From NCBI GenBank assembly GCA_042568205.1, contig JBHPJE010000004.1, positions 1,280-65,279 of the forward strand: a DNA stretch of 64,000 nucleotides. The letters run 5' to 3'. Below, piece by piece: positions 44,165 to 60,004 of the stretch; position 1 is the first letter of the stretch, and each line of letters begins with the position of its first letter. The notes under the pieces were generated by a model, which was given only the letters and a program-made list of their open reading frames with translations, searched no databases and was not told the origin of the DNA. This stretch comes from Patescibacteria group bacterium (GTDB taxonomy: Bacteria; Patescibacteriota; Gracilibacteria; UBA1369; PNNO01). The translations under genes and the position numbers were made by a program.

Positions 44165-46879
44165 TTATTTACGTTTTCTTCTCATCCAAGCACCACCTAA
44201 TGCTACTCCAATTAATGGAATAATCAGTCCAGGACCAGTTTGAGGTGTAGCAGGTGCAGCGTGTAATGGATCACCAGCAGCTACATAAGTTGGAGCTGGC
44301 TCACTTGGCTCATCAGGTGCAGCGCCATGTACAGGGGCTGGAACATCTGGATCAGCTGGTTCAACTCGCGTTCCACCACCAGGTCCATTTCGATCTCTAT
44401 CATCTGGTGGAGTATAAGCTATTGAAGGTGGAGGCTCTTCTTCTTCCGGAGGGGTATAAGATAAAGAAGGTGGAGCGTCCTCTTCTTCAGGAGGTGTATA
44501 AGATAAAGAAGGTGGAGCGTCCTCTTCTTCAGGAGGTATATAAGATAAAGAAGGAGGAGTGTCATTATCTACAGTAACTGTGAATGTATCTAAACAATCT
44601 GTAAGTGGTTGTTGAGTTTCTGGATCTAAAGCAACTACTTCAATTGTCTCAGAATCATTAGTAGTTGGTCTTCCATTCATTAAGACTGTTAAAGCATCTA
44701 TTGTTAAAGGATTTGCAGAATCAAAAGTAATATCTGCATTTCCTGTAGTTGTTGAATAAGTTAAATTTGCCCAAGATCCTTGATCACCATCTATTTCAAC
44801 AGTTAAAGGTTGATCAACAAATCCACCAGCAGGAATAACAAACGCTGCTGATCCTTCTTGATCTGCTTCTGCAGGAGAAACAATACTTAATGATCTACAA
44901 ACTGGATCTGAAGGTTCCGGAGCTCTTGAAATTACTATTGAATCAATACATTCTGTCATTGGACGTCCTGTTACTTCCATAGCCTGAACCGTAAGCGTTA
45001 CAGGATCATCTACATATGGATTACCTGATAAACTTACCGTTTTATAATCTGAATAAATATTTGAGTCCTGCCCATCAAATACAAGTGAATCATTTGAAGC
45101 AAATATATGATAATTTGCAACATTGTCTGTTCCGGTAACTGTAAATTCTACTTTATCAGTTGTAGGATCAAAATCTTCTGTAATCTCCATATCATCATTA
45201 GAAGGCAACGTTATTTCTAAAAGTGAGCAATTTTCCGGTTCCGGTGCTTTTCTTGTAACTGTAATTTGATCTTTACACTCACCTATTTGATTACCACTGT
45301 CATCTACAGCTTGTACAAAAACAGTAACTGGTTTATCAAGTTCCGGACCACCACTTAATGATACTGAATTTTGATAAGAAATTACATCAGCGTCTTTACC
45401 ATCAAATACAAGTGAATCATTTGAAGCAGAAATTCTATACGCAGTACTTTCGTCTGTCCCGGTTGAAGTAAATTCTACTTTGTCAGTTGCAGGATCAAAA
45501 TCTTCAGAAATTTCCATACTATCTGTTGTAGGTTGGAGAATATCTATAGTTGAGCAATTTGGTTCTGGCTCTGGTGCACAAACTGGGTGAGTATTAAGTA
45601 CATCTTGCAATATTGAAAGTATTGTTGGAGATAGAGTAGTTGATTGTGCATAAGCTATTGTCAAAACACCTTCATTAAAATATACAACAGGGCTGGTAAT
45701 TGCTGATGCTGATGTTGCACCTGTAGCGCCAGTTGCATTTCTAATAGCTGTACTTGCTGGAAATAATGATAAAATATCAAAACTTGGATTATTTACAAAA
45801 GCTTCAAGTTCTACACATTGACAACCAGTAACGTATTCTCCTGCTAAATCCTTTAAATATGCAGTATATTCAGATTCAAGGGTCCCTCCTGCTTCTTGTG
45901 TTGATTTATCTATATCACTCATAACCTGAGCAACTAATGCTAATAAATTAAATTGGTTATCACATCCAGTACATTCTGCTTGATATTCGACAGCAACTTG
46001 CTTTGCTGCTACTAAATTATTTGTCTGTAAATAAAAGATCTCCTTATAAAGCTTTTCCTTACAAGTTGAAATACAACCCTCTTCAACCATCTTTAACAAT
46101 ACTTCGTTGAATTTGTCCCAATTTTTAGCCGTATATGCAGTTTTAAAATCATTAATATAATTATTACATCTTTCTTCTTGTGTTAATGGAGCTTTTTCAC
46201 AATTTTGAGCATACCAAATGTTAATACCTGTTGCCATTATTACATCCAATTGTGTCCTAACAGTTGGATGATTCAAATTATTCGCTGCTCCTGCTTTAAC
46301 TACATCTTGTGTTAAAGCACAATAATTTACAGGTTTACAAGATCCTGTTGCACCAACAATATTAGTGAAGATACTCGTATCATTACATGTACATGGTATT
46401 GGAATACGTAAAGGATTTTGGTCCTGACCATAAGTTGGTGTAAGTCCTAAACTTGCATCACAAACGCAAGAGGTTCCGTCAGATACAAGACCCCTGTCTG
46501 TAGGACATACCAAAGTGTCTTTATCACCAGTAACTAAGATTAAACCATCAGCTCCGATACTCTCACCTGAAGTTGTAACACCACTTAAAGTCCTTTCTGC
46601 AGGTTTTTCAACGTGTGTAAGAGTAAACCCTTGAAATCTTTCAGAAGTCTGAGAGTAAATAATCGCACCTACAATGGCAGCAATTACTACTAACACAGCA
46701 AAAAATGCAATTATTTTACCAGTAGTAAAAAATGGCTTTTTTTCTTTTGGAGCTTTTTTAGCCTCGACAGGCTTAGCAACTTCTGCCTTTGGAGCTTCAG
46801 GTACAGCAGGAGTAGGTTGAGTTGTTTCAGCAGGCTTCTTCTCTTCAGGAGAAGAGCTTGAAAGTAAAGGATTTTCCAT
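44165..46879 (-). CDS. surface protein with N-terminal TM anchor, duplicated ~110-aa modules, Pro/Glu tandem repeats and LPXTG-like C-terminal sorting signal (904 aa)
   Basis: C-terminus ..ATPQTGPGLIIPLIGVALGGAWMRRKRK (motif + hydrophobic segment + basic tail). Repeated modules ..DFDP.TDKVEFT.TGTD......ASNDSLVFDG.D... PPSLSY[IT]PPEEEDA repeats. Confidence 0.8.
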   Translation of the reverse strand: MENPLLSSSSPEEKKPAETTQPTPAVPEAPKAEVAKPVEAKKAPKEKKPFFTTGKIIAFFAVLVVIAAIVGAIIYSQTSERFQGFTLTHVEKPAERTLSGVTTSGESIGADGLILVTGDKDTLVCPTDRGLVSDGTSCVCDASLGLTPTYGQDQNPLRIPIPCTCNDTSIFTNIVGATGSCKPVNYCALTQDVVKAGAANNLNHPTVRTQLDVIMATGINIWYAQNCEKAPLTQEERCNNYINDFKTAYTAKNWDKFNEVLLKMVEEGCISTCKEKLYKEIFYLQTNNLVAAKQVAVEYQAECTGCDNQFNLLALVAQVMSDIDKSTQEAGGTLESEYTAYLKDLAGEYVTGCQCVELEAFVNNPSFDILSLFPASTAIRNATGATGATSASAITSPVVYFNEGVLTIAYAQSTTLSPTILSILQDVLNTHPVCAPEPEPNCSTIDILQPTTDSMEISEDFDPATDKVEFTSTGTDESTAYRISASNDSLVFDGKDADVISYQNSVSLSGGPELDKPVTVFVQAVDDSGNQIGECKDQITVTRKAPEPENCSLLEITLPSNDDMEITEDFDPTTDKVEFTVTGTDNVANYHIFASNDSLVFDGQDSNIYSDYKTVSLSGNPYVDDPVTLTVQAMEVTGRPMTECIDSIVISRAPEPSDPVCRSLSIVSPAEADQEGSAAFVIPAGGFVDQPLTVEIDGDQGSWANLTYSTTTGNADITFDSANPLTIDALTVLMNGRPTTNDSETIEVVALDPETQQPLTDCLDTFTVTVDNDTPPSLSYIPPEEEDAPPSLSYTPPEEEDAPPSLSYTPPEEEEPPPSIAYTPPDDRDRNGPGGGTRVEPADPDVPAPVHGAAPDEPSEPAPTYVAAGDPLHAAPATPQTGPGLIIPLIGVALGGAWMRRKRK
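44406..44573. repeat. four tandem copies of a 42-bp repeat inside the 904-aa gene
   Basis: Copies at 44406-44447, 44448-44489, 44490-44531 and 44532-44573. The two middle copies differ at one position. Encodes the PPSLSY-PPEEEDA units. Confidence 0.85.
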
Positions 46880-46974
46880 GTTTATATTTGTTATTTATTT
46901 AATTAAAAATGGCACAATACCATTAGTATATTATACCATCTTAGTTGCGTTGCGTCAAATTTATTGACTAGTTC

Positions 46975-47094: not shown

Positions 47095-49347
47095 TTAGTT
47101 AGTTAATTCTCCGGAAACTGTAATAAATTGAGATGTCACATCAACAACATTTTGTGCATCAGCTATCTCAAGCACTACTTCATATGAACCTGGTGCTTTA
47201 AATATATGATTAGGTTTATGCTGTGTAGATGTTTCTCCATCACCGAAATCCCACTTATACCTTGCTATTGTACCAGTAGAACAAGAAGGATTAAATGTTA
47301 TATTTAAAGGAGCATCTCCTTCAGATTTAGAAGGTTCAAAACATGATTTTAATGGCACCTGTCTTACACTAATTAAAATATCAGTAGTTTCCTCAACATT
47401 ATCATTGGTTCTTACTTTAACTTTTGCAGTAAAATTACCTATTTTCCTATATTGATAAGTAACCTGCCCAGTATCACTTCTTTTTGGAGATCCATCTCCA
47501 AAGTCCCATTCATAACTAACAATTTGACCATCAGCATAAGTCGAGCTGGTTGCGTCAAATTCAACAGTTAAAGGCACTACACCAGAAACTGGTTCTGCTA
47601 ATAATGTAGCTTGTAAACCAGGTGATTCTGCTTTAACAAGTAAAGTTTCTTTTCCTTCAAATCCTGCTGAATCTACAACTACTAATGTAACATTATAGCT
47701 TCCAACAGTATTGAATGCATAAGAAGTTGTTTCACCAACAGAATCATAGGCTCCATCACCATCAAAATCCCATTTATAATCAACTATATCATCATCAGGA
47801 TCTGTACTTGAAGTTGCATCAAAATTCACTTCAAATGGAACAGTTCCTGTAATGAAATTATCATCTTTATTTGCTTTTTCTGGATTTGTAATCATTACTG
47901 CTTCAGGCGAAGAAGGCGCTAATTCAACATCAAGCACCATTTCTGATGTAGCAGTTTTATTTTCTTCATCAACAATCGTTAATACTACTTTATATGTACC
48001 GGCAGCACTAAATGAATGCTGAGCAGTTCTTGTTCTAGCTTTTGAAGTACCATCACCAAAATCCCATTCATAATTAGTGATTGTACCAGCAGGGCTTGTA
48101 GATTTAGAAGCATCAAAAGTATAAGTTTTATCTACATAGAATTTACTTGAATCATCATTTAATATTTCAATTTCTGCATTTGGTAAATTGCTTCCAGAAA
48201 CTTCAATTTTCTGTTCAGCAATTGCATATTCACCTTTTTGATTAGTAACCCGAAGAGTAACATTATATGTACCTAATTGATCGAATGTATGACTAAATAC
48301 TGGTCCGCCCTCTTCAAATCCCTGACCATCAATTTCCCAAGCATATGTACTAATTTGACCATCTGGATCCATTGAATCAGATCCATCAAACGTTACCCTT
48401 AATGGGGCTTCACCCTCAACAACATCTGCAATAATTATTGCAGTAACTGCTTCATCACCAATTGTAACTGTATGTTCAATTGTTTCACTTGATTCAGAAC
48501 CATCATTTTTATTCTTAAATGTAAGGATTAATTTAACATCATATCTGCCATCACCTTTTCTTTCGTAAATGTGAGTTTCAAGGCTTGTCCCAGGCCCAGA
48601 TTGACCATCACCAAAATCCCAAAAATACGAAATAACATCAAATGCTCGTGAATCATAAGGAAGATTTGAAGCATCAAATGTTACTTCAACCGGAGCAATT
48701 AAATTTATTGTTTCTTCAGGGATTGTAACAAGGCCTGAAGGTTTTGGTTCTGAAGGAATTTGCTGATTACTAAGATAGAACCAAGCTCCAATCCAAAGTC
48801 CAATAATAATTACTAATACTCCAAATGCACTACCTGCAAGCATGTATCCTCTTTTCTTTGCAAACTTATCCTCTTTTCTAGCCATTAAAGCTTTGAAAAT
48901 TCCACCAATCGACATAATAAATGCTACAAATGCACCAATTCCAAAGAATAAGTTAACAATTGTGATTAATGTGTTAATCAATTGTTGTTGATTGATTCCC
49001 AAAGATTGAGCAAGTGCACTTGATCCTGTTCCAGCTGTTCCAACAAAAACAAAGATTAATACAAGTAGCAGAATTGTTCCGCATCCAAATGTTCCTCCAC
49101 ATCCAATTATCACTTTCTTATTTCTAGCTCTTTCTTTTTGAATCATTTCTTCTTTTGTAAGAACTTTTTTTACACCTGGTTTTTGTAGAGGCTGTGGCGC
49201 TGGCTTCGCAGGTATTTGTTGTTGCGGCGCTGGAGCTGGTGGGGGCGTAGGTACCTGCGCTGGTTGCTGAGCTGGTTGCTGCGGTGCAGCTGCTGGCTCA
49301 GTGCCAAAATTTGCAGGCTGATTATTAGGTTGATTTGTTTCTTCCAT
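47095..49347 (-). CDS. membrane-anchored protein with Pro/Gln-rich N-terminus, pilin-like two-helix hairpin and six PKD-type domains (750 aa)
   Basis: Six WDFGDG-type motifs (YFWDFGDG, YAWEIDGQG, YEWDFGDG, YKWDFDGDG, YEWDFGDG, YKWDFGDG). Hairpin LINTLITIVNLFFGIGAFVAFIMSIGGIFKALMARKEDKFAKKRGYMLAGSAFGVLVIIIGLW. Confidence 0.85.
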   Translation of the reverse strand: MEETNQPNNQPANFGTEPAAAPQQPAQQPAQVPTPPPAPAPQQQIPAKPAPQPLQKPGVKKVLTKEEMIQKERARNKKVIIGCGGTFGCGTILLLVLIFVFVGTAGTGSSALAQSLGINQQQLINTLITIVNLFFGIGAFVAFIMSIGGIFKALMARKEDKFAKKRGYMLAGSAFGVLVIIIGLWIGAWFYLSNQQIPSEPKPSGLVTIPEETINLIAPVEVTFDASNLPYDSRAFDVISYFWDFGDGQSGPGTSLETHIYERKGDGRYDVKLILTFKNKNDGSESSETIEHTVTIGDEAVTAIIIADVVEGEAPLRVTFDGSDSMDPDGQISTYAWEIDGQGFEEGGPVFSHTFDQLGTYNVTLRVTNQKGEYAIAEQKIEVSGSNLPNAEIEILNDDSSKFYVDKTYTFDASKSTSPAGTITNYEWDFGDGTSKARTRTAQHSFSAAGTYKVVLTIVDEENKTATSEMVLDVELAPSSPEAVMITNPEKANKDDNFITGTVPFEVNFDATSSTDPDDDIVDYKWDFDGDGAYDSVGETTSYAFNTVGSYNVTLVVVDSAGFEGKETLLVKAESPGLQATLLAEPVSGVVPLTVEFDATSSTYADGQIVSYEWDFGDGSPKRSDTGQVTYQYRKIGNFTAKVKVRTNDNVEETTDILISVRQVPLKSCFEPSKSEGDAPLNITFNPSCSTGTIARYKWDFGDGETSTQHKPNHIFKAPGSYEVVLEIADAQNVVDVTSQFITVSGELTN

Positions 49348-49361
49348 ATTATTTAAATTAT

Positions 49362-52300
49362 TTATTCATTTAGAGAAAGTTTATAAAGACTTAAGCTTAT
49401 AATACCAAATAAAAGTATGCTTACAAGGATTGTTGAAATTTGTCCACTTGCAGAACCTAATAAATTTACCTGCATATTGCTTAGTCCTTGGTCAATATTG
49501 TTATCAAAAATAACATTAACTTCCTTCATATCGATTCCACCATCTTTACCATAAACTGTTAATCTTACTTTAATTTTTTCAGCTTCAGGATTAAAAGTTG
49601 TTGTATAAATACCTGCTTTTGATGTTACATAATCTTCATCATCAGCTTTTCTACCATTATTATTAGAATCTACATAAACATTATTATCAAAAACATATTT
49701 TTTAATACTTCCTTCTGAATTTGCAAAGTTAAAACTTGCCTCATCAAAACTGCCTTGTAGATGAATTGCCCCATCTTCAGGACTCAAAGCTGGATCTGTA
49801 AGGAAATCTGCCTTTAGATCCCCTACTGCTTCCTCGACTTCACCAGAATCTTTCACATTAACAAATTTAACAACTTCAGATTCACTATTGTAATTATCTG
49901 TAACAATTAATCTAGTTCTATAAATTCCAGGTTGTTCATAAGTCCAAATAGGATTTTTTTCAAATGAATCAATATCATTATCCAAAATACCATCTGCATC
50001 ACTATCAGCACTTGGTAAATTACTACTTAAATCGAAATCCCATTTAAATGTATCAAGAACAGTTCCTGCTACTTCATCAGCAACAGAATTATTAATGAAT
50101 CCTATTTTATTAGTTCCGATTTGAACAAATCTATAATCAGCAATTGGCTCACCAGCGCTTACATCAACATAAATTTTAACTGGCAATGAAATTGATTCTG
50201 CAAAGTTATCATCTATTACTTTAAGTCTTACATTAATACCTTCATCATCAGGTTGTGTATAAATGTGTGAAATTGTAGATTTAGTAACTTCTTCATTATT
50301 TCCAAATCCATCACCTTCAAAATCCCAGATATAACTTACTATTTTGCCATCAGGATCATACGAACTACTGGTAAAGTTAACTGTATCTCCTGCCATAACA
50401 CTTGATCGATCAACATTAAAGTTAGCAACAGGAATGTCATTTGGCCCGTTAATAACTGTAACTGATGGAAGTACATTTTCTTTAAGAATTTCTCGTGCAC
50501 TTATTGTAAAGTTTTCCTGATCAGTCATTTGAAGACCAAATTTATAAGTAACTGGATCACCTTCAGCCCCTCTTGTACCAAGAGTAACTACGGCTTGTGG
50601 ATCCTGAGTTATTGTATGCCCCATAGACATGCTTGAATCTTTTTCGTTGTAATACCACCATAGATATTTAACGATTTGTCCGTCTGGATCCTTTGCCCCA
50701 ACAGCTTCAAGCTTAACTCTCACTGGAGTAGTTAAATCGCTTTGCTGAGGAACTGCAGTAAATGCCTGCATAGTTGGAAGCTCTCCAACTACTTTAATAT
50801 TAATACCTGCAACTGAAGTTCTAGTTAAGTCATCTTTATCCAGCACTTTTAATGAAGCATAGTAATGACCAGGATCTTCTGGACTTAAATCAGTATAAGT
50901 ATGAGTTATTTTTTTCTCTGTTGATCTTTGAGTATCTCCAAAATCCCATTGATAACCAAGTCTTCTACTTGTTCCATCAACATTTAAAGATCTTTCTGCA
51001 TTAAATACAATTACAGATTTTCGATTCACTTCAATTGGCTCAGTAAAGTCATATATTTCATTCCCATCTACTTCAACTGCGATAACAGCAACAGGGCTAT
51101 TAGCATCACCTATAACAATTCTACGTTTAATTGTATTTTCATTATCTTCTCTATCAAATACAGTCAAACGAACATCGTAAGATCCTGCTAAATCGTAAAT
51201 ATGCTTAACATCAGTTCTACCACCAACCATATCACCTGAAACATCGGTAGTTTCATCTCCAAAATTCCATTCATATGCAACAGCGTTTTCAGAAATTCCC
51301 ATAAAATCAATAGTTGTCTCACCATTTTCATCAAGAATTCCTGCAGCCTGTTCTACATTTCCAAAAGCAACATCTAAGATACTACTAACTTGAATAATTT
51401 GTTCATGAATTATTCCTGGATTTTCAGGTTCATTCAAATCATCAACTTGAAGTGAAACTTTGTAGTCTCCAGTTCTAAAAAATTTTAAATACATTGATTC
51501 TTTATTAGCACCTTCTGTATCAACTTCTCCAGTTAAAGGATCAATAAAATCATAATCTTCATCAATTGCATGCACTTTCCATTTATAAATATACTGTCCA
51601 GTTTGTATATTTCCATCAGGATCCAAGCTTTGCGAACCATCTAGATAGTAAATATGAGGCTTACTGTTGTCTGGATTAGTAAAAATAAACTTAGCTTCAG
51701 GGGGCTGAGATTCAATTGTTAAAACAGATGAATCTGTAGCAACGTTCCCTAAATTGTCAGTCACTCTTAAATTAACTGCGTAAACTCCTGGGCTATCAAA
51801 AGATTTTATAAAACTTTGGTCGGTTTCCTCAGCAGCATATCTTAACTGCGTATTATTAATTTTCCAATTATATCCAGTAATCTGACCTCCATCTGTAGAT
51901 GAATTACTTGCATCAAAAGTAATATCTTCGTTTATTCGTGCAACATTACTAGGTAACACATCAACTCTAGCAGCAGGAGAATCAACGACTACTTCAAATA
52001 CTTTTCTATCTTTAATTCCTCTTGAATCTTCAACTTCAATTACAACAGGATATGTTCCTTCTTCACCGTAATAATGTGTTTGAATATCCTGAGCAACCAT
52101 TTCTCCAAAGATTCTATCGCTTCCATCTCCAAATGCCCAACCAATTGTTTGAACATATGTTTCACCTGCTTCCTGAGCTTGTTCTGTTTGGAATCCTCCA
52201 CGAGTTTCAGAAGCATCAAAAGTAATACCAATGTCTCTTGCTTCTGTTAAAGTTACATTTAATCTATTTTTATCAATTACAAGGAATCCATCTTTGTAGA

Positions 52301-53804
52301 AACTCATGTAACCAAGATATCTTTCCCCTACTGCAACCTGTAAATTTATTTGAGATGCAGGTGGTTTAATTGTGATGTCCTTATATGCAATGCCTGAGGC
52401 AATTGCATTAGTTGAATCACCTTTAATTTTTAATTTGATAATATATGAACCAACTTTTCTATATACATGTGAAGTAGCGAATTTCCCTTCAACTAATGTT
52501 CCGTCACCAAAATCCCATTCAATATCTCCTTCATTAATACTTTGGAAATCCGGTCTTGCAGACTTCAATGCATCAACATTCACTATTAATGGTGCATTAC
52601 CTTCATCAACATCAGCTGAAATAACCGCTGCAACAAACTGAATATTCATCACAACCTGATGGAGTTCGTTTAATGCTTCTAATGCATCAACTACTTTTAC
52701 ATTTGAAGGAATATCAAATGCTGTTGGGATTAATAATTCTAGTGCATCAACAGCCCTATCATAAGCAACTCCAAAATCAGTTTCAGCAGTTGTAACTAAT
52801 CCTGATTCATCAATTAAAGCTTTTAAATCTTCTAGATTATTCAGAATTTCGTCGATTTTATCTGCAAAGTCTAACAAGTTTGCTCTCCAAATACTTTCAC
52901 CTTCTGGACCAGCTTGTGTTAGATAATTATCAATATTTAATTGTAGTTCAGCACTTTCATCAACCCACCAAAAAGTCCAATCGTCTTCTAATTGTTGTTG
53001 AGATTGTCTTAAGAAAATATCCACATAATCTTCTGCATCACTTGATACTTCAGAAACTCTACTTAACTCTCCAGATGCATTTTTAACTCTTTGAAGTGCT
53101 CTTTTAATATCACTTAAGAAAACATGTAGTTGTTCTGCTCGATCAACATAAGGCACTGATTCAAGATCACCAAGTGCATCATTCACATCAACATAATGTG
53201 CGTAATTAGTTGCAAGATCACGTGCAGCCTTTTCAACTTGATTTGCTGCAGCAAAGAATAACCTTCTTACACTTTGAGTTTGATCACCTGTTAATTCACT
53301 TGGAGCAGAACTTGAAAGTGTAGTTTCAGTATCTGGGCCAAGATCAGTTCCTTTTCCTACTCCTTTTATTACTGTGTTGACTAAAGCATAAGAAACTAAA
53401 ATTATCACAATTCCAATAACTGCGTACATTACAGATTTTTTTCCTTTTGTTGTTTGTTCTTCAGCTCCTCCTGCAATTACATACATAAATCCTCCGTAAA
53501 TCACCATTATAACTGCAACAAGCCCAAGGAATCCAAGAACAAAGTTAACTGCATTAACAATAAAATCTCTTAAATTTGTTTGCTGAGTTAATGTAGGATC
53601 ATATCCTTCTGAACTTGGTGCTTGCAGTCCTCCCTGAAATTGAGTAAAGCTTGTTGCTTCCTCGCCTCCACAAGAGAAAAATCCACCAGTAGATTTTGCC
53701 AAATCTCCACAAAGATCCGCACTTGCGGTTTGTACAGATACAAAGAATGTCGCAATTAATGCGATAATAAATGTAAGTAATATGTATTTGTTTAGTTTCT
53801 TCAT
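49362..53804 (-). CDS. giant surface protein (1480 aa): N-terminal VirB2/TrbC-like pilin hairpin, helical region, about nine PKD-type domains, C-terminal TM
   Basis: Signal peptide. NLRDFIVNAVNFVLGFLGLVAVIMVIYGGFMYVIAGGAEEQTTKGKKSVMYAVIGIVIILVSYALVNTVI (nt ~53350-53590). Repeated [WF]xFGD-type PKD motifs. C-terminal ISTILVSILLFGIISLSLY. Confidence 0.85.
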   Translation of the reverse strand: MKKLNKYILLTFIIALIATFFVSVQTASADLCGDLAKSTGGFFSCGGEEATSFTQFQGGLQAPSSEGYDPTLTQQTNLRDFIVNAVNFVLGFLGLVAVIMVIYGGFMYVIAGGAEEQTTKGKKSVMYAVIGIVIILVSYALVNTVIKGVGKGTDLGPDTETTLSSSAPSELTGDQTQSVRRLFFAAANQVEKAARDLATNYAHYVDVNDALGDLESVPYVDRAEQLHVFLSDIKRALQRVKNASGELSRVSEVSSDAEDYVDIFLRQSQQQLEDDWTFWWVDESAELQLNIDNYLTQAGPEGESIWRANLLDFADKIDEILNNLEDLKALIDESGLVTTAETDFGVAYDRAVDALELLIPTAFDIPSNVKVVDALEALNELHQVVMNIQFVAAVISADVDEGNAPLIVNVDALKSARPDFQSINEGDIEWDFGDGTLVEGKFATSHVYRKVGSYIIKLKIKGDSTNAIASGIAYKDITIKPPASQINLQVAVGERYLGYMSFYKDGFLVIDKNRLNVTLTEARDIGITFDASETRGGFQTEQAQEAGETYVQTIGWAFGDGSDRIFGEMVAQDIQTHYYGEEGTYPVVIEVEDSRGIKDRKVFEVVVDSPAARVDVLPSNVARINEDITFDASNSSTDGGQITGYNWKINNTQLRYAAEETDQSFIKSFDSPGVYAVNLRVTDNLGNVATDSSVLTIESQPPEAKFIFTNPDNSKPHIYYLDGSQSLDPDGNIQTGQYIYKWKVHAIDEDYDFIDPLTGEVDTEGANKESMYLKFFRTGDYKVSLQVDDLNEPENPGIIHEQIIQVSSILDVAFGNVEQAAGILDENGETTIDFMGISENAVAYEWNFGDETTDVSGDMVGGRTDVKHIYDLAGSYDVRLTVFDREDNENTIKRRIVIGDANSPVAVIAVEVDGNEIYDFTEPIEVNRKSVIVFNAERSLNVDGTSRRLGYQWDFGDTQRSTEKKITHTYTDLSPEDPGHYYASLKVLDKDDLTRTSVAGINIKVVGELPTMQAFTAVPQQSDLTTPVRVKLEAVGAKDPDGQIVKYLWWYYNEKDSSMSMGHTITQDPQAVVTLGTRGAEGDPVTYKFGLQMTDQENFTISAREILKENVLPSVTVINGPNDIPVANFNVDRSSVMAGDTVNFTSSSYDPDGKIVSYIWDFEGDGFGNNEEVTKSTISHIYTQPDDEGINVRLKVIDDNFAESISLPVKIYVDVSAGEPIADYRFVQIGTNKIGFINNSVADEVAGTVLDTFKWDFDLSSNLPSADSDADGILDNDIDSFEKNPIWTYEQPGIYRTRLIVTDNYNSESEVVKFVNVKDSGEVEEAVGDLKADFLTDPALSPEDGAIHLQGSFDEASFNFANSEGSIKKYVFDNNVYVDSNNNGRKADDEDYVTSKAGIYTTTFNPEAEKIKVRLTVYGKDGGIDMKEVNVIFDNNIDQGLSNMQVNLLGSASGQISTILVSILLFGIISLSLYKLSLNE

Positions 53805-53866
53805 TATTTTATTTTAATTTTTCCTTATATTATAGCAGAAAATTAAGGTTTTTTCAATTGTAAATG

Positions 53867-54811
53867 TTAAGTTCCTGGTTCAAGCTGAATAACTGTATTT
53901 ACCAGTGCAAAAGCGCCTAAACCGAGCACCATTGCAATAACAGCACCAATCAATACTTTTTTAGCATTTTGCGTCTTTTCTTCGTTTCCTGTAGCTGTTA
54001 CATAAAGGAAACCTCCATACATTGAAGCAATAAATGCTGATATTGAAATAAATGCTGATGTAAAGTTGGTAAATCTAACAATCATTAATATTCCCTGCCT
54101 TGCTTCTGGAATCTTTGAACCCTTATCCGGGAATAAGAAATCCTGAACAACAAATTCAGCAAGTCCAATAATAAATAAACCTACAACAAGCCAAGTAATT
54201 TGCTTTTTCACCTTTGTTTGAGCTTCTTCATTACCTGCACTTACAAGAAGTCTAAATCCTGCAACAACCATCATAAATATTGCTAAAGCACCTGCAACAA
54301 GCATGGCAATATTATAAAATCCTTTAATTTGTCTTGTACCTTCAGTTGCTGCTATCTGAGCAGTAGCTTCACTATCATAAACCTCTCCTTCAAGCCCAAA
54401 AAACACATTTTTGACTAACACATCGGCAACTATTATCATAACAACACCAGTAGCAAGCATTATCATTTGCTCTTTCATCTTTGGCATAACTTCGTCAATC
54501 TTCTTTCTGGCTAAGATAAGCCTTCCGCCAGTGATTATAATCATAATAACCGCAATTGAAGCTATTAAAAATTTAAAGAAATCCAAAGTGAAATATATTG
54601 CTGTAGTTATATTAGAAACTCCTTGCTTTTTAATTGCATCACCATGAGTCAAAGTGTCGTATGTCGGTAGTTCAGTTGCCCCTTCAATTATTTCAAGATA
54701 TCCATCAAATTTTGCATTAACCTGTTCATTCATAACAATATTAACTGATAAAACCAGTGTAGTTATTGCCATGACTAAGGCCAATGATGTTAGGAATTTA
54801 TTAATTTTCAT
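53867..54811 (-). CDS. membrane protein composed of three tandem VirB2/TrbC-like pilin hairpins (314 aa)
   Basis: Signal/TM, then three units of hydrophobic helix - G-G/[AS]-x-x-[LY] turn with N/G-E-E-x-x-T/K-K - hydrophobic helix. Example: FISISAFIASMYGGFLYVTATGNEEKTQNAKKVLIGAVIAMVLGLGAFALVNTVI. Confidence 0.75.
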   Translation of the reverse strand: MKINKFLTSLALVMAITTLVLSVNIVMNEQVNAKFDGYLEIIEGATELPTYDTLTHGDAIKKQGVSNITTAIYFTLDFFKFLIASIAVIMIIITGGRLILARKKIDEVMPKMKEQMIMLATGVVMIIVADVLVKNVFFGLEGEVYDSEATAQIAATEGTRQIKGFYNIAMLVAGALAIFMMVVAGFRLLVSAGNEEAQTKVKKQITWLVVGLFIIGLAEFVVQDFLFPDKGSKIPEARQGILMIVRFTNFTSAFISISAFIASMYGGFLYVTATGNEEKTQNAKKVLIGAVIAMVLGLGAFALVNTVIQLEPGT

Positions 54812-54818
54812 ATTTGAT

Positions 54819-55952
54819 TTATGGGCTAAATTGACCAGCTACAATCGTACTTACTATTGCAAATGAACCGTAAATAAGCACCATCCCGGCAATTGAAAGG
54901 AATATAATTTTCTTTGCTTTATTTGTTTGTTCTTCCTTTCCTCCAGCTGTTGCATACATAATTGCACCCACAATAAGCATTAGAATTGCAAGCGGAGCTA
55001 CAAATGTAACAGCCATATTAGTAAATCCAATCATTTCCTGAACTGCTCGTGTTGGATTAATAGCAGGATCCAATCCCATAGAAGAGTATTTTGAAGGATC
55101 AACAATATATAAAACTTTATCAATTAAAGTAGTAGCTAAAATTATGGCAACTAAACCAACTGAAGTATAAATAAGATTTTTCTTATCTAAAGCTATACTC
55201 TCTTCACTTCCTGCCAGACCAATAAGCCTGATCCCATTTCTAATAAACATAAATATCGCAACTCCTCCAATCAAATATTTAATAAATGTAATTATAACTC
55301 TGGTTTCCTGTTTAAATAATGCTGCCTGTCGAATAATATTATTCGGATCTTTTAAAAATCCACCTCTGGCACATTCAGTCTCCCCCGGAGCACAGGCAAC
55401 TGATAAAACTTTTGCAAATTCATCACCAAATCCAATTATTAATAAACCAATTATTCCGTATGTTATGGCATTTTTTTGCTTTGTAATCGTATCATCATTA
55501 CCCTGTGAAATAATTAATTTAAGTGCAGAAAGCATTATAAATAGCACAGCAACTGCACCCAGAATAAACTTTGCATTTCTAATAAGACCATTAGCAAATT
55601 CACTAAGCATTCCAGTAGGCGTAGTACTTGATAATTTAGGGAAATCCGGATACGCCGCAGGATTTAAAGGAATATAAATATAATCATCTTTGTATGCACC
55701 AGGTTCGGTTACAGGTGTTGAAGTAGTTGTTGGTGAAGTTTTAGCAGGAGCTACTGCGCTTGGAGCAGACCCTGCACCACTTCCCCCAGTCCCTTGAGCA
55801 GCAGTTCCACCTGAGCTACCACCACCAGTACCAGATGTAACATCCTGCGCACTAGTAATTGGTGCAAGCATCGCTAAAACTATTCCTAAAACAAAAAGAA
55901 ATGCTACGAATTCTTTTAAAAATCTACTAATTGTTTTTTGTTTTTGGGCCAT
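54819..55952 (-). CDS. membrane protein with Gly/Ser/Thr-rich N-terminal region and three tandem VirB2/TrbC-like pilin hairpins (377 aa)
   Basis: Same unit three times. Example: MAVTFVAPLAILMLIVGAIMYATAGGKEEQTNKAKKIIFLSIAGMVLIYGSFAIVSTIV. 7-nt gap to the next gene. Confidence 0.75.
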   Translation of the reverse strand: MAQKQKTISRFLKEFVAFLFVLGIVLAMLAPITSAQDVTSGTGGGSSGGTAAQGTGGSGAGSAPSAVAPAKTSPTTTSTPVTEPGAYKDDYIYIPLNPAAYPDFPKLSSTTPTGMLSEFANGLIRNAKFILGAVAVLFIMLSALKLIISQGNDDTITKQKNAITYGIIGLLIIGFGDEFAKVLSVACAPGETECARGGFLKDPNNIIRQAALFKQETRVIITFIKYLIGGVAIFMFIRNGIRLIGLAGSEESIALDKKNLIYTSVGLVAIILATTLIDKVLYIVDPSKYSSMGLDPAINPTRAVQEMIGFTNMAVTFVAPLAILMLIVGAIMYATAGGKEEQTNKAKKIIFLSIAGMVLIYGSFAIVSTIVAGQFSP

Positions 55953-55963
55953 TTATTTAATTT

Positions 55964-58357
55964 TTAGGCTTTTGCTTTTTTTGGTTGTTTCTTCTTTTTG
56001 ATTGCTTCTTCGAAAACTGGGATGAGAGCATCGGTATGTTTTATTAATTGTTTTCTTAATTTATCTGATCTGACTATATCTCTTGAACTTCCATTATTTT
56101 TTTTAAATCTAATAAATTTTATTATTTTAGGTTGGTCCTTCTTGTTGAAATCTTCCAACTTCCCATTTAATTTTTTTTGTAAACTTTTAAGTTTATCAAA
56201 TTTAGTTAAAGCCGTCATTCGCTCATTTATTGTTCTTTGTAATTTTGAAGGAAGCTTCTTAATATCATTTGCATCAGGCTTTTTAAATGTAACTTTAATT
56301 GTATCTTTGTTATAAAATGGAACTCTTTTGCTGGTCATTTTATTTCCCTTCAACAGATAAGCTGTCTTTTCACCTGGAACATACAATGCTTCTCTTTTTC
56401 CTTTTGGGCCATCGATTGTGATATATGCAAACTTATCTCTTACGTTATTAAAATTCATTAATTGATGGATTTTTCTATTTAATAATTTTCTTTCATTCCT
56501 ATTAGGCTTTTCTTTTCCAACAGTAAATTTATAAGGATCTTTTGCATCGTAATTAATCAAACCTTTAAAATCAGGATTTAAATGGGCTTCCATATTTGCT
56601 CTATCCTTCTTAAATTTCTCTTTTGCTTTTTGAGCCTCAGTTTTCTCTGACGCTGCTTTTTGTTCTTCTTTGGTCAATACTCCAAGTTCTTTTGAACCGC
56701 TTCTATCAATCTTTCCTTTCTTATCCTGCTTTGCTACCAATAATTTATTTGTTCTTGTATGAAATAAATATGTACGTCCTCCTGCTGTGATTTTAAATTC
56801 ACCCTGACCACCACCTTCATTTCTAAAATACACTTTTGTTCCTCCTTCATTGATTACGAGTCCATAGCCACCACGTGTACTTCCAGGCAATCTTGCATTC
56901 TTGGCATAATCTCTTAATGATTGCTTTACTTGATTCAATTCTCCCATATTTTTCATTTTCAATTGACTCAAATTCTTTTGAAAACTAGCCATTACTGAAT
57001 GAGCTTTTATTACATGAAGTGCTTTTAAATGATCTGGATGTCCACCTTCCTGAGGAGTACTTAAATCAAAACCACCGCCTGCTTCAGTCCCATCTCCTGT
57101 CATATAACATACTACTTTACCTTGTCTATAAATAACCATTGTAGGATATCCCCTGTATGATTTATTCGGATCTTTTGGTTTTGGCCAGTTTATTGCTGCA
57201 GCTTCATAGCCATCAGGTAATGATGTTGTTTTTACTTTTCCAGGACTGCCATTATGTAAAAGACCTTTCACATTGTTGAGAACTTTATTTTTTGCTTCAC
57301 TAAAATTAGGTGCAGTCCCATTTTCAAGATGATTTAGATTCTCAACCATAGTTCTTTGACTTTCACTTAATTTTTTCAATTCTTCTTTGCTCATTCTCCC
57401 AGGAGCTTTTATTGGAGTGCCTGGCTTTGGAGCTGGTCCAATACTTTCATAAAGAGGATCTGATGGTGGCATCTCATTAGGCTTTGTAGCATTAGCAGGA
57501 TTTGGCGGAATTGTTATTTTTTGTTTTTTTGCTTCTTTATCAATTTCTGTATTTAAATCTGTTAAGAGTTCGTTTCTTTTTTTAGGATCTGTTTTTGCAT
57601 CAGCTAATTTTTTTATTTTTTTAATTGTTTGTAAACTCTCATAAGCCTGCTTATATTGTTTTGATCCTTTCATTGCCTGATTATGTGTATATTTGCCTCT
57701 TTTTTTCTCTAATACTCCTTCAAGGAATTTAATTTTATAGGCAATATCTGCACTTAATTTTTCATTTTTTTGTTCAATGGTTTGCGGTTTTTCATTTTGC
57801 GCCTCTGGTTTTCCTGCGGCAGCTTTTGGAGGTGCAGCTGGTGTTCGAGAAGGTTGTGCAGTAGCTTGAGTTGCAGGTTTTCTTTTAGAAATATTGATAA
57901 ATTTCTTTTTCTTACCTCTACGTTTTCCGCTTCTTAAATATGCTTGCTCATTATGATAATCAATTCTACTTTGAAGATGCTGATCAATCCCTTTTAATGT
58001 TTGTTTTTTTACTTCCCCTTTTAATTTTTTGGCTTTTTCTAATTTTTCTTTCAATAATTTCACAGTATCTTTCATCACACTTGCTCTCTCTTTAATTTTT
58101 TCTGCTTGCCTTCTTCTTCTTTTACTTTTACTTTTTGACAATTTATTTCCCTTCTCCTCAAGATTAGTTGCGACTTCATCAAATTGATTCAACTTATGTT
58201 CAACATCTTTTTGTAGTTCATCAGCACTTTTTGGTTTTTGAGAAGGCCCTTTTGGCGCTCCTCCAGGCGTAGCCGGAGGTTTCCCTCCGGGACCCATATA
58301 CAAAAACTTACTTTCAAATAGGAAATTATTAATATATTTTTGAAACAAATTTTTCAT
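55964..58357 (-). CDS. very basic Lys-rich hypothetical protein (797 aa), first gene of the surface cluster
   Basis: Long ORF with no TM segment. Lys/Arg runs (KSKSKRRRRQ, GKRRGKKKK), Pro-rich linkers and a Gly-rich central beta-like region. Confidence 0.75.
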   Translation of the reverse strand: MKNLFQKYINNFLFESKFLYMGPGGKPPATPGGAPKGPSQKPKSADELQKDVEHKLNQFDEVATNLEEKGNKLSKSKSKRRRRQAEKIKERASVMKDTVKLLKEKLEKAKKLKGEVKKQTLKGIDQHLQSRIDYHNEQAYLRSGKRRGKKKKFINISKRKPATQATAQPSRTPAAPPKAAAGKPEAQNEKPQTIEQKNEKLSADIAYKIKFLEGVLEKKRGKYTHNQAMKGSKQYKQAYESLQTIKKIKKLADAKTDPKKRNELLTDLNTEIDKEAKKQKITIPPNPANATKPNEMPPSDPLYESIGPAPKPGTPIKAPGRMSKEELKKLSESQRTMVENLNHLENGTAPNFSEAKNKVLNNVKGLLHNGSPGKVKTTSLPDGYEAAAINWPKPKDPNKSYRGYPTMVIYRQGKVVCYMTGDGTEAGGGFDLSTPQEGGHPDHLKALHVIKAHSVMASFQKNLSQLKMKNMGELNQVKQSLRDYAKNARLPGSTRGGYGLVINEGGTKVYFRNEGGGQGEFKITAGGRTYLFHTRTNKLLVAKQDKKGKIDRSGSKELGVLTKEEQKAASEKTEAQKAKEKFKKDRANMEAHLNPDFKGLINYDAKDPYKFTVGKEKPNRNERKLLNRKIHQLMNFNNVRDKFAYITIDGPKGKREALYVPGEKTAYLLKGNKMTSKRVPFYNKDTIKVTFKKPDANDIKKLPSKLQRTINERMTALTKFDKLKSLQKKLNGKLEDFNKKDQPKIIKFIRFKKNNGSSRDIVRSDKLRKQLIKHTDALIPVFEEAIKKKKQPKKAKA

Positions 58358-58754: not shown

Positions 58755-59300
58755 ATGGCTAAACAAGCTGCAGGTACAGGTCGACATTGGTATGTGGTTC
58801 ACACATATTCAGGATATGAAGATGCTGTACGCGAAGCTTTACAACAAAGAATTGAAACAATGAATATGCAGGATTATATATTCGATGTTGTTGTGCCAAA
58901 AGAAACTCAAATTGTTATTAAAAAAGGTGAACCTACTACAGAAGAAAAAAGAATTTTCCCAGGTTATGTTCTTGTTGATATGACAGTAACTGATGAATCA
59001 TGGTATGTGGTTCGAAATACTCCAAATGTAACTGGATTTGTAGGATCTGGAACTACTCCGGTTCCTGTTTCTGAAGATGAATGGAAGGTTATTGAAAAAC
59101 ATATGGGTAAGGAAGAACCAAGATTTAAAATCGACTTCAGCATTAGTGATACTGTTACAGTTCTTGATGGACCTTTTGCAAATTATGAAGGTATCATCAA
59201 TAAAATCGACGAAGAAAAAGGTAAAGTTACTGTTATGATCACTATCTTCGAACGTGAAACTCCTGTTGAACTCGACTTTACACAAGTTAAGAAGAAATAA
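58755..59300 (+). CDS. nusG: transcription termination/antitermination factor NusG
   Basis: HWYVVHTYSGYEDAV, FPGYVLVDM, NTPNVTGFVG, and KOW region DTVTVLDGPFANYEGII. Confidence 0.95.
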   Translation: MAKQAAGTGRHWYVVHTYSGYEDAVREALQQRIETMNMQDYIFDVVVPKETQIVIKKGEPTTEEKRIFPGYVLVDMTVTDESWYVVRNTPNVTGFVGSGTTPVPVSEDEWKVIEKHMGKEEPRFKIDFSISDTVTVLDGPFANYEGIINKIDEEKGKVTVMITIFERETPVELDFTQVKKK

Positions 59301-60004
59301 TGAATAAGCTTACAACAATTTTTATCATTGTGACGGTTTTGATTGTCAGTGTCGTTGGCACTCTTCTTGGTATTAGATATTTTTCAGGAGACAATCAAGA
59401 GTCTGAACAACCGCTGTATGTAGCAGAAGAAGAGCCTGAAGACACTTCACCTCCTCCGACAATAGCATTACCTTTTGATGAGCCAGAAGGACCACCAGAA
59501 CCAATAACAACTCCGTCTTCCCCTCCTCCATCAATACCTTCTCCTTTTGATTTTATGGAAGAAGAGGAATTAAAAGCACCAATTATGGCTGGCATTGATT
59601 TAAAAATGATTAATGATGCTGGTTTTAAAGATAATACTTTAGATATTTCGGAATTTGATGGAATCGTTTTTAATGATTTCAACATGGCTGAGTACAATGA
59701 CGACGATCACATTTTATATATTTTATTGTCTGGTGAAGAAGAATCTGCAAAAATTACTGAACTCTTCTTTCCGTCTTTAGAAATCTCTAACGAGGTTTAC
59801 GCTTCTCTAAAGGCAAAAATGGCAGATAGTGGGTACTTTGAATTAAATGAAACGAATCAATATGGAGACCACTCATATTTTGCCAATCATGCTACAGAAA
59901 AGAACTCTGTATTTTTAGTTGTAAAGATAAGAGAGCGCTTGTATACTCTTCACTACCCAGCTAAGAACCACAATAAAATTAAGAATTTAATTAACCAATT
60001 ATAG
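59300..60004 (+). CDS. hypothetical membrane-anchored protein with Pro-rich linker (234 aa), inserted between nusG and rplK
   Basis: ATG shares one base with the nusG stop (TAATG). TM IFIIVTVLIVSVVGTLLGI. Stop lies 3 nt before rplK. Confidence 0.7.
   Translation: MNKLTTIFIIVTVLIVSVVGTLLGIRYFSGDNQESEQPLYVAEEEPEDTSPPPTIALPFDEPEGPPEPITTPSSPPPSIPSPFDFMEEEELKAPIMAGIDLKMINDAGFKDNTLDISEFDGIVFNDFNMAEYNDDDHILYILLSGEEESAKITELFFPSLEISNEVYASLKAKMADSGYFELNETNQYGDHSYFANHATEKNSVFLVVKIRERLYTLHYPAKNHNKIKNLINQL

Follow-up and report, generated by a model that had tools for sequence, protein, structure and literature searches.

The 64,000 nucleotides of DNA analysed here, referred to as the window, correspond to bases 1280-65279 of contig C34 of a Patescibacteria group genome of 1.16 Mb, which consists of 42 contigs, is 88% complete and has a G+C content of ~34%. 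The window carries four consecutive genes, A to D, the last two of which encode very large proteins with arrays of PKD domains. Judged from its sequence, protein C genuinely joins a VirB2-like pilin hairpin to a PKD array, and protein D is a probable, more divergent fusion of the same kind. Within a strictly conserved four-gene cassette, C and D occupy the third and fourth places. Homologues of the proteins studied have been deposited as Candidatus Peregrinibacteria, Peribacteria or "Patescibacteria group", and those of C carry at most the name "PKD domain-containing protein". In window coordinates, the cassette is made up as follows.

54819..55952, minus strand: gene A, the first cassette gene, 377 residues, with three PF18895 hairpins joined in one chain behind a signal peptide
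53867..54811, minus strand: gene B, 314 residues, likewise with a signal peptide and three PF18895 hairpins in one chain
49362..53804, minus strand: gene C, 1480 residues, open reading frame verified
47095..49347, minus strand: gene D, 750 residues, open reading frame verified

PF18895 is the Pfam family T4SS_pilin, in which T4SS stands for type IV secretion system. It was found in three stretches in both A (E = 8e-22) and B (E = 2e-22), and a hidden Markov model (HMM) built from the hairpins themselves also counted three domains in A. B exceeds, in addition, the cut-off of the NCBIfam model NF045849 for a pilin-like protein of a Mycoplasma integrative and conjugative element (45.3 bits; cut-off 40). 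Protein C is composed of the following parts.

53718..53804, minus strand: residues 1-29, Sec-type signal peptide ending ...TASA|DL, read from the sequence, with a modelled helix at residues 2-21
53580..53717, minus strand: residues 30-75, extracellular N-terminal peptide with two cysteines (DLC...GGFFSC), 43% identical to distant homologues
53364..53579, minus strand: residues 76-147, VirB2-like pilin hairpin of the form helix-loop GGAEEQTTKGKK-helix, assigned from PF18895, the model and its conservation
53280..53363, minus strand: residues 148-175, disordered and poorly conserved linker (19% identity), with a predicted local distance difference test score (pLDDT) <50 for residues 148-171
52647..53279, minus strand: residues 176-386, extracellular helical bundle, modelled by AlphaFold as seven helices with pLDDT ~80-93
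49497..52640, minus strand: residues 389-1436, ten consecutive PKD-like domains, delimited with Pfam and an iterated HMM built from the repeats
49395..49469, minus strand: residues ~1446-1470, C-terminal hydrophobic anchor and short tail, with a hydrophobic 19-mer at residue 1448 and 16% identity

The hairpin of C matches PF18895 over residues 76-144 with 36.7 bits against a cut-off of 26.6, which makes it a member of this family, and PF18895 is recorded in all precomputed annotations of C orthologues. The layout typical of the family is present as well: a signal peptide, two membrane helices, a short charged loop placed in the cytoplasm and both ends outside. The match to the TrbC/VirB2 family PF04956 stays under the cut-off (23.2 bits, E = 8e-5; cut-off 27.9), so that C is not counted as a member of it, and the same holds for the score against NF045849 (30.6 bits; cut-off 40). 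In an AlphaFold model of residues 1-480, made from a 39-row alignment and with a mean pLDDT of 75, the hairpin consists of two long helices, 78-110 and 115-148. Among 109 clusters of C orthologues, a hydrophobic segment is present at the N-terminus in 106 and the two-cysteine motif of the N-terminal peptide in 38. The C-terminal anchor was detected in 73 of these clusters at the threshold used; others have a weaker hydrophobic segment with a basic tail, and several clearly have none.

The PKD families, too, are matched above the cut-off. The array of C matches PKD_4 (PF18911) with E = 1e-62 and 208.6 bits and PKD (PF00801) with E = 5e-47, and the first PKD domain of the model superposes on collagenase PKD domains with a TM-score of 0.8-0.84, normalised to the target (Foldseek). 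The bundle between linker and array gave no Pfam match, and a Foldseek search of the model against the PDB returned significant matches for the PKD part only. A VirB5-like or other known fold for the bundle was rejected, as the helical matches had root-mean-square deviations of 17-27 Å and are meaningless. The bundle is weakly conserved in sequence (19%) yet found across the family. Two further assignments of C were considered and discarded. Its match to the Pam pilus model NF058578 (PamR, NCBIfam) reaches 42.6 bits where the cut-off is 300, and is a local one of 46 residues (843-888) inside a PKD-like domain. As to a modular type IV pilin, no Pfam or NCBIfam match to a class III signal peptide or to the IPR012902 module was obtained; C has a Sec-type signal peptide and a two-helix hairpin instead.

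An earlier note on this DNA, made from its letters, had described C as a signal peptide and one pilin-like hairpin followed by a helical region, about nine PKD repeats and a C-terminal transmembrane segment. The hairpin is borne out by the Pfam score and by the modelled helices, the helical region corresponds to the seven-helix bundle and the terminal segment to the hydrophobic stretch at ~1448-1470. The PKD array is there too, but the iterated HMM counts ten domains and not nine.

Protein D differs from C at its N-terminus and is made up of the following parts.

49156..49347, minus strand: residues 1-64, disordered tail rich in proline and glutamine, predicted to be cytoplasmic, with pLDDT <50 for residues 1-59
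49018..49089, minus strand: residues ~87-110, first membrane helix, of the signal-anchor type, with a hydrophobic segment at residue 87 within a modelled helix 65-105
48763..48990, minus strand: residues 120-195, divergent pilin-like hairpin of the form helix-loop MARKEDKFAKKRG-helix, with modelled helices 120-155 and 161-195
47107..48741, minus strand: residues 203-747, six consecutive PKD domains, found by Pfam PKD_4 (E = 9e-86, six stretches, 282.5 bits) and counted as six by the iterated HMM

In place of a signal peptide, the model of D shows a first helix that appears uncleaved, after which the hairpin follows with the layout seen in PF18895 proteins. A basic stretch was read in the sequence ahead of this helix. 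Cleavage by signal peptidase after ...SALA|Q was considered and rejected: the Ala-x-Ala motif occurs in close relatives only, and distant orthologues have (D/S)NP(L/I)F..LG at this place. Because the cleavage motif is thus restricted to close relatives, the first helix is treated as retained. All D orthologues collected, from 22 loci and six database proteins, have three hydrophobic segments or membrane helices and the same N-terminal layout.

The relation between the two kinds of hairpin was assessed with hhalign, using a profile of 26 distinct D hairpins and a profile of 127 canonical hairpins. The two profiles matched with a probability of 85-86%, an E-value of 5e-6 and a score of 33.4. With the reversed profile, a score of 18.0 and a probability of 4.8% were obtained, and 60 column shuffles gave a mean score of 10.0 (standard deviation 2.4, maximum 18.6). 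A common pattern can be followed through both hairpins, reading VNFVLGFLGLVAVIMVIYGGF...EE...KGKK...YAVIG in C and VNLFFGIGAFVAFIMSIGGIF...KED...AKKRG...LAGSAFG in D. The D hairpin is therefore regarded as a probable divergent relative of the canonical hairpins, its membership of the family not being demonstrated. Of what the earlier note had said about D, the Pro/Gln-rich N-terminus agrees with the disordered tail and the six PKD repeats were counted exactly. The two-helix hairpin comparable to that of C fared less evenly: it is present in the model and has its profile match, but it is missed by Pfam, and the note had overlooked the additional helix at residues 87-110.

Neither protein is a peculiarity of one genome. 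With the N-terminal 420 residues of C as query, 115 protein clusters were found, nearly all of 1400-1700 residues and carrying PF18895 together with PKD domains. As more than 110 clusters share the architecture of C and 23 share that of D, the two are not chance open reading frames. The order A-B-C-D on one strand was present in all 18 related loci, comprising three distant loci and 15 genomes of the same order (eight families); in one genome D is cut by the end of the contig. In the three distant loci, which are 33-37% identical in the N-terminal region, the same four genes lie in the same order opposite secE-nusG-(unknown)-rplK-rplA. Across the 18 loci, nusG is found on the opposite strand at 0.2-2.0 kb in 15, and in the window at 2.8 kb, owing to an extra gene of 797 codons. 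The pairing of a giant with a D-like partner reaches further still. In the five loci inspected from further orders of the class, a giant protein of 1229-2885 residues always carries a fused hairpin, and wherever sequence upstream of its gene was available, one or two genes for single hairpins come before it. In four of the five, a D-like protein of 577-755 residues with three membrane helices follows, which makes the pairing older than the order.

As the earlier note had put it, C and D are found directly downstream of the triple-hairpin genes A and B and on the same strand; the gaps before C and D measure 62 and 14 nucleotides. That note would have given up its interpretation if the N-terminal hairpins had scored only as generic transmembrane anchors or if the genes had not been syntenic with pilin-like genes in any related genome. 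C passes the PF18895 cut-off and its hairpin is conserved to an extent described below, and A and B precede C and D in every related locus. Taken as a whole, its interpretation is upheld in part, with respect to the hairpin of C and to synteny; for D, family membership of the hairpin is only probable.

How identity is distributed along C was examined by comparing the protein from the window with 28 distant homologues that are 25-40% identical to it overall. The hairpin, at 62%, is the best conserved region, compared with 22% for the signal peptide, 43% for the N-terminal peptide, 19% for both the linker and the helical bundle, 33-42% for the PKD domains and 16% for the C-terminal anchor. The best-conserved stretch of 40 residues in the whole protein begins at residue 84. 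Eleven residues of the hairpin are invariant among the distant homologues. The invariant or nearly invariant positions lie at the outer (N87, L90-G94) and inner (I102-G105, Y108) ends of helix 1, in the loop (G113, K120-K123) and along helix 2 (Y127, A128, G131, I134, S138, A140), including its outer end (V142-T144). With 62% identity and an invariant motif in its loop, against 16% in the C-terminal anchor, the hairpin of C is, by sequence, more than a generic or passive anchor.

These figures bear on the possibility that the hairpins are plain membrane anchors, and that C and D each act on their own as surface or coat proteins, either adhesins or S-layer-like, which do not assemble with their pilin-like neighbours. 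Such an arrangement would suit the ordinary second anchor that is usual at the C-terminus of C, the failure of Pfam to recognise the hairpin of D, the absence of secretion machinery nearby and the presence in the window of further large surface proteins (SLH, SdrD-like and sortase-signal proteins). A passive anchor would, however, be expected to be the least conserved part, as the C-terminal one is, and not the most conserved part with an invariant motif in its cytoplasmic loop. The fixed gene order with A and B in all related loci also speaks against it, as does the resemblance of the C hairpin to a free-standing pilin, S, with which it shares 67% identity over 78 residues (E = 1e-30). Plain anchoring is for these reasons considered distinctly unlikely.

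The pilin S is encoded on another contig.

C39:49843-50247, outside the window: gene S, a pilin of 134 residues in which a signal peptide and a short N-terminal peptide precede the hairpin

An orthologue of S, of 128-146 residues, lies beside a likely murB and a gene for ~180 residues in all 13 genomes of the order that were fetched, murB being recognised by its FRVGGPAD motif only, without a family scan. With an HMM of the C hairpin, S orthologues score 95-113 bits and the hairpins of A and B ~15-75 bits. Within genomes, the mean identity to the C hairpin is 53% for S, 37% for the third hairpin of B (B3), which is the nearest among those of A and B, 32% for the third hairpin of A (A3) and 21-25% for the other A and B hairpins. 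By these sequence comparisons, S is the closest relative of the hairpin of C. The similarity continues to the last residues of S (...GTDAGV, against ...GTDLG in C), and C therefore reads as S with a C-terminal extension. Concerted evolution of the C and S hairpins was considered as well and is not supported, identity being 53% within a genome and 48% between genomes, and the tree described below showing no pairing of C with S by genome.

The exact end of this similarity also fits a different fate of the protein, in which the hairpin would act as a transient module for export or insertion and C would be cut in the linker (residues 148-175), yielding a small pilin and a PKD protein that is either secreted or anchored at its C-terminus. 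VirB2-type pilins such as TrbC and VirB2 are processed at their ends, and the linker is disordered and poorly conserved, as a cleavable segment might be. A conserved cleavage motif is, on the other hand, not visible in the linker of C, and the cassette contains no dedicated protease gene. At locus L053, the one case examined, a small pilin gene lies directly upstream and the giant nevertheless keeps a hairpin of its own. Cleavage of this kind is held to be improbable.

A FastTree tree of 110 hairpins gave further insight into their relationships. The hairpins A1, A2, A3 and C each form one clade, with support of 0.95-0.99, and B1, B2 and S were not resolved as clades. Support was 0.86 for a clade of C and S and 0.99 for a group of C, S, A3 and B3. 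Hairpins of one genome were never mixed across positions. Several hairpin positions thus look like old, separately retained lineages and not like interchangeable copies, and a fixed hetero-oligomer fits such lineages better than a set of interchangeable variants does. The hairpin family as a whole comprises 75,471 representative clusters at E <= 0.001, and public proteins with 3 to 17 hairpins fused in one chain are common. Examples are P0147, P0139 and P0161, with 8, 11 or 17 hairpins per chain; P0147 has 1775 residues and 17 hairpins. The existence of such chains suggests that the hairpins pack side by side and that fusing them is harmless. Elsewhere in the genome, at C9:5691-9938 and thus outside the window, five consecutive genes (180, 294, 256, 195 and 488 residues) each encode an N-terminal extracellular part and a terminal hairpin of the PF18895 type. 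They adjoin genes that resemble those of type IV pili by motifs only, namely a PilT-like protein of 348 residues and pseudopilins with GFTLIE-type N-termini.

Several hairpin positions that are separate and universally retained would suggest a fixed stoichiometry, and this could also be the stoichiometry of a channel. In that case all eight hairpins of the four cassette proteins, 16 helices in total, would form a fixed ring or channel in the membrane for exchange with a host, by uptake or delivery, the PKD arms serving as tethers. There are parallels for such a ring: fused proteolipid hairpins make up the rotor rings of archaeal ATPases, VirB2-type hairpins line the lumen of known pili, and within the present family proteins with up to 17 hairpins exist. 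The helices of the cassette hairpins, however, are without polar residues that could line a pore, their conserved residues being mostly glycine, alanine, tyrosine and hydrophobic ones; nothing in the analysis points to a lumen or a substrate, and the cassette has no gene for an ATPase or transporter. A channel is accordingly rated as very improbable.

The genes and signals that surround the cassette in the window are as follows.

55964..58357, minus strand: lysine-rich gene of 797 codons, bordering the cassette next to A
44165..46879, minus strand: gene of 904 codons, bordering the cassette after D, its product ending in PQTG, a hydrophobic stretch and RRKRK (sortase signal)
53829..53857, minus strand: promoter-like site in the 62-nucleotide gap between B and C, TTGAAA, 17 nucleotides, TGc TATAAT, with 11 of 12 consensus positions and an extended -10
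46930-46958: promoter-like site before the 904-codon gene, of the sigma-70 type, with 11 of 12 consensus positions and an extended -10

Together with the cassette, the two flanking genes form a compact run on the minus strand in the order 797-codon gene, A, B, C, D, 904-codon gene, with gaps of 11, 7, 62, 14 and 215 nucleotides. A terminator-like hairpin follows the last gene, and just past the run the opposite strand carries nusG, rplK and rplA. The flanking genes were rejected as members of the cassette, since homologues were found only in two other loci of the family to which the window belongs; judged by this distribution, they are lineage-specific additions. The two promoter-like sites, both strong and of the sigma-70 type, are consensus matches only. 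Given the one between B and C, C and D may also be transcribed on their own. Between nusG and rplK, at 59300-60004 of the window, a gene for 234 residues with one N-terminal membrane helix was observed. A counterpart (200-290 residues, with an N-terminus like MNKFT.FT...) occupies the same position in the related loci inspected, and the product from the window has a weak match to PF18895 (E = 0.005) over its membrane helix.

The best-supported reading of the cassette, to which about an even chance is given, is that C and D are co-assembling, adhesin-carrying hairpin subunits. According to the positive-inside rule and the models, the loop of either hairpin is predicted to face the cytoplasm and either PKD array the outside of the cell. 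On the simplest reading, the hairpin would serve as a conserved two-helix carrier, and a long extracellular arm would be fused to its outward-facing C-terminus: six PKD domains in D, and in C the helical bundle followed by ten PKD domains and, usually, another anchor. Most likely, A, B, C and D, and probably S, would pack hairpin beside hairpin, either within the cytoplasmic membrane or in a short polymer pulled out of it, and this packing would hold both kinds of PKD arm on a single hairpin-based assembly, from which they would project through the wall. Such an assembly could take the form of a filament or short pilus, a membrane platform, a pore or a ring. A rule of thumb allows ~4 nm per immunoglobulin-like domain. 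The arms would then reach roughly 40-50 nm in C and 25 nm in D, which would suffice to span the wall and to bind a particle or a host cell. The cassette is probably a cell-surface attachment device. Co-assembly of C and D with A, B and S, their display at the surface, a role in adhesion and any dependence on the VirB4 machinery are what we infer; binding of a host or particle we infer from the PKD arrays only.

A number of observations weigh against subunits of this kind. The hairpin of D gave no match to PF18895 at E <= 0.01, none is present in the precomputed Pfam annotation of 23 orthologues, and its profile match to the canonical hairpins spans 55 columns only, covering helix 1 and the loop. 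A profile of 28 hairpins found no pilin among the PDB sequences; with no solved pilin matched, it is family annotation that connects the hairpins with true pili. In most C orthologues both ends are anchored, a poor fit with extraction into a long pilus, and this double anchoring argues against a place for C at the tip of such a pilus or far out on it. A short structure could still be tolerable, given a C arm of ~45 nm. PKD arrays alone are no proof of adhesion. Finally, no T4SS machinery is encoded near the cassette: VirB4 and the coupling protein are on other contigs, and on the contigs of three relatives that hold both, a distance of ~50 kb to 1 Mb separates VirB4 from the cassette.

In the genome studied, VirB4 is encoded by a single gene (C23:64216-66777) that adjoins gyrA, and its product matches P-loop_TraG, AAA_10 and CagE_TrbE_VirB. 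One homologue of the coupling protein is encoded, on contig C18. VirB4 is present as a single copy, with 62-78% identity, in 59 of 61 genomes of the order. Its conservation across the order is unusually high for this set of genomes, and the protein ends in a long run of VEAPP repeats. Co-occurrence of VirB4 with the cassette was set aside as uninformative about dependence: the former occurs in 59 of the 61 genomes, the latter in all those sampled, and where both are universal their co-occurrence says nothing on whether one depends on the other. With regard to the marks of a pilin array, virB4 is not within about 20 genes of the cassette, and C (1480 residues) and D (750 residues), being fusions, are not stand-alone pilins of about 100-150 residues.

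A bolder version of the co-assembly of C and D, which is thought unlikely, would make A, B, C and D together with S an envelope organelle of the Peregrinibacteria and related Gracilibacteria. It would be a fixed VirB2-like hetero-oligomer (3 + 3 + 1 + 1 hairpins, with S as the repeating unit), encoded separately from the VirB4 cluster and holding the host by two types of PKD "tentacle". If this were true, the organelle would be either the missing adhesin of the patescibacterial T4SS or a use of the pilin fold that is independent of a T4SS.

Except in the Saccharibacteria, little is known of the means by which the ultra-small Patescibacteria recognise their hosts and hold on to them, and the main survey of their T4SSs detected pilin-like genes everywhere and no T4SS adhesin such as PrgB (PMC12102498). 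The cassette provides candidates for an entire order in the form of a pilin-type carrier with PKD arms, two triple-hairpin partners and a matching small pilin. It would also indicate that the VirB2-like fold is used, beyond variable arrays, in fixed, multi-gene and probably hetero-oligomeric sets. In the literature searched (PF18895; pilin with PKD; Gracilibacteria or Peregrinibacteria), no description of hairpin-PKD fusions or of the A-B-C-D cassette was found, and the cassette appears to be previously undescribed. A paper on Vampirococcus mentions giant membrane proteins with PKD domains in general terms only.

In the conjugative pili of diderm bacteria, a pilin of the VirB2, TraA or TrbC type is combined with a separate tip protein, VirB5. 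The hairpins of the cassette resemble these pilins in their helix-loop-helix structure, the basic loop and the position of both ends outside, and in both cases an adhesive function would be attached to a pilin polymer. Unlike in the VirB2/TraA/TrbC systems, the arm is fused to the pilin and a separate VirB5 is lacking; the score of C against PF04956 is below the cut-off, and its helical bundle is without a match among solved structures. PrgB-type adhesins of Gram-positive bacteria are comparable in being large surface proteins, as C and D would be if they mediated contact for a monoderm-type T4SS. They differ in that they are anchored to the wall, have no pilin module and are encoded inside the transfer operon, and no sequence relation between them and C or D was found.

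Closer to home, the VirB2-like pilins of Patescibacteria are encoded in arrays of 2-11 small, variable genes, often near virB4 (PMC12102498), and a series of pilins is essential in Ca. Southlakia epibionticum (PMC10633639). The cassette is like these arrays in that C belongs to the same hairpin family, the hairpin genes stand in a row and the genome has a VirB4 of the monoderm type. Whereas the pilins of the arrays are small and variable and are interpreted as host-range variants, the cassette proteins carry three fused hairpins per chain (A and B) or arms of 550-1300 residues, their hairpins occupy several fixed orthologous positions, and the cassette is never near virB4. Pam pili are surface filaments of immunoglobulin-like domains that are specific to the Candidate Phyla Radiation and have been implicated in contact with the host (PMC13278184). 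Their pilins differ from C and D, as they assemble by donor-strand exchange and are without a membrane hairpin (PMC13278184).

A parallel in design is offered by PilB and PilC of Streptococcus sanguinis, modular type IV pilins whose pilin module bears a grafted adhesive module and polymerises together with a plain major pilin (PMC8179133). C likewise has a small pilin carrier and a module placed behind a linker, and a plain pilin, here S, exists alongside. Type IV pilins belong to another superfamily; their signal peptide is of class III, they possess only one helix at the N-terminus, and their assembly is carried out by machines of the PilB/PilC type. C, in contrast, has a Sec signal peptide, a two-helix hairpin, a far longer arm and usually a second anchor, and the resemblance is best taken as an analogy of design only. 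On that footing, C would carry the "modular pilin" idea beyond type IV pili, to pilins with a VirB2-like fold.

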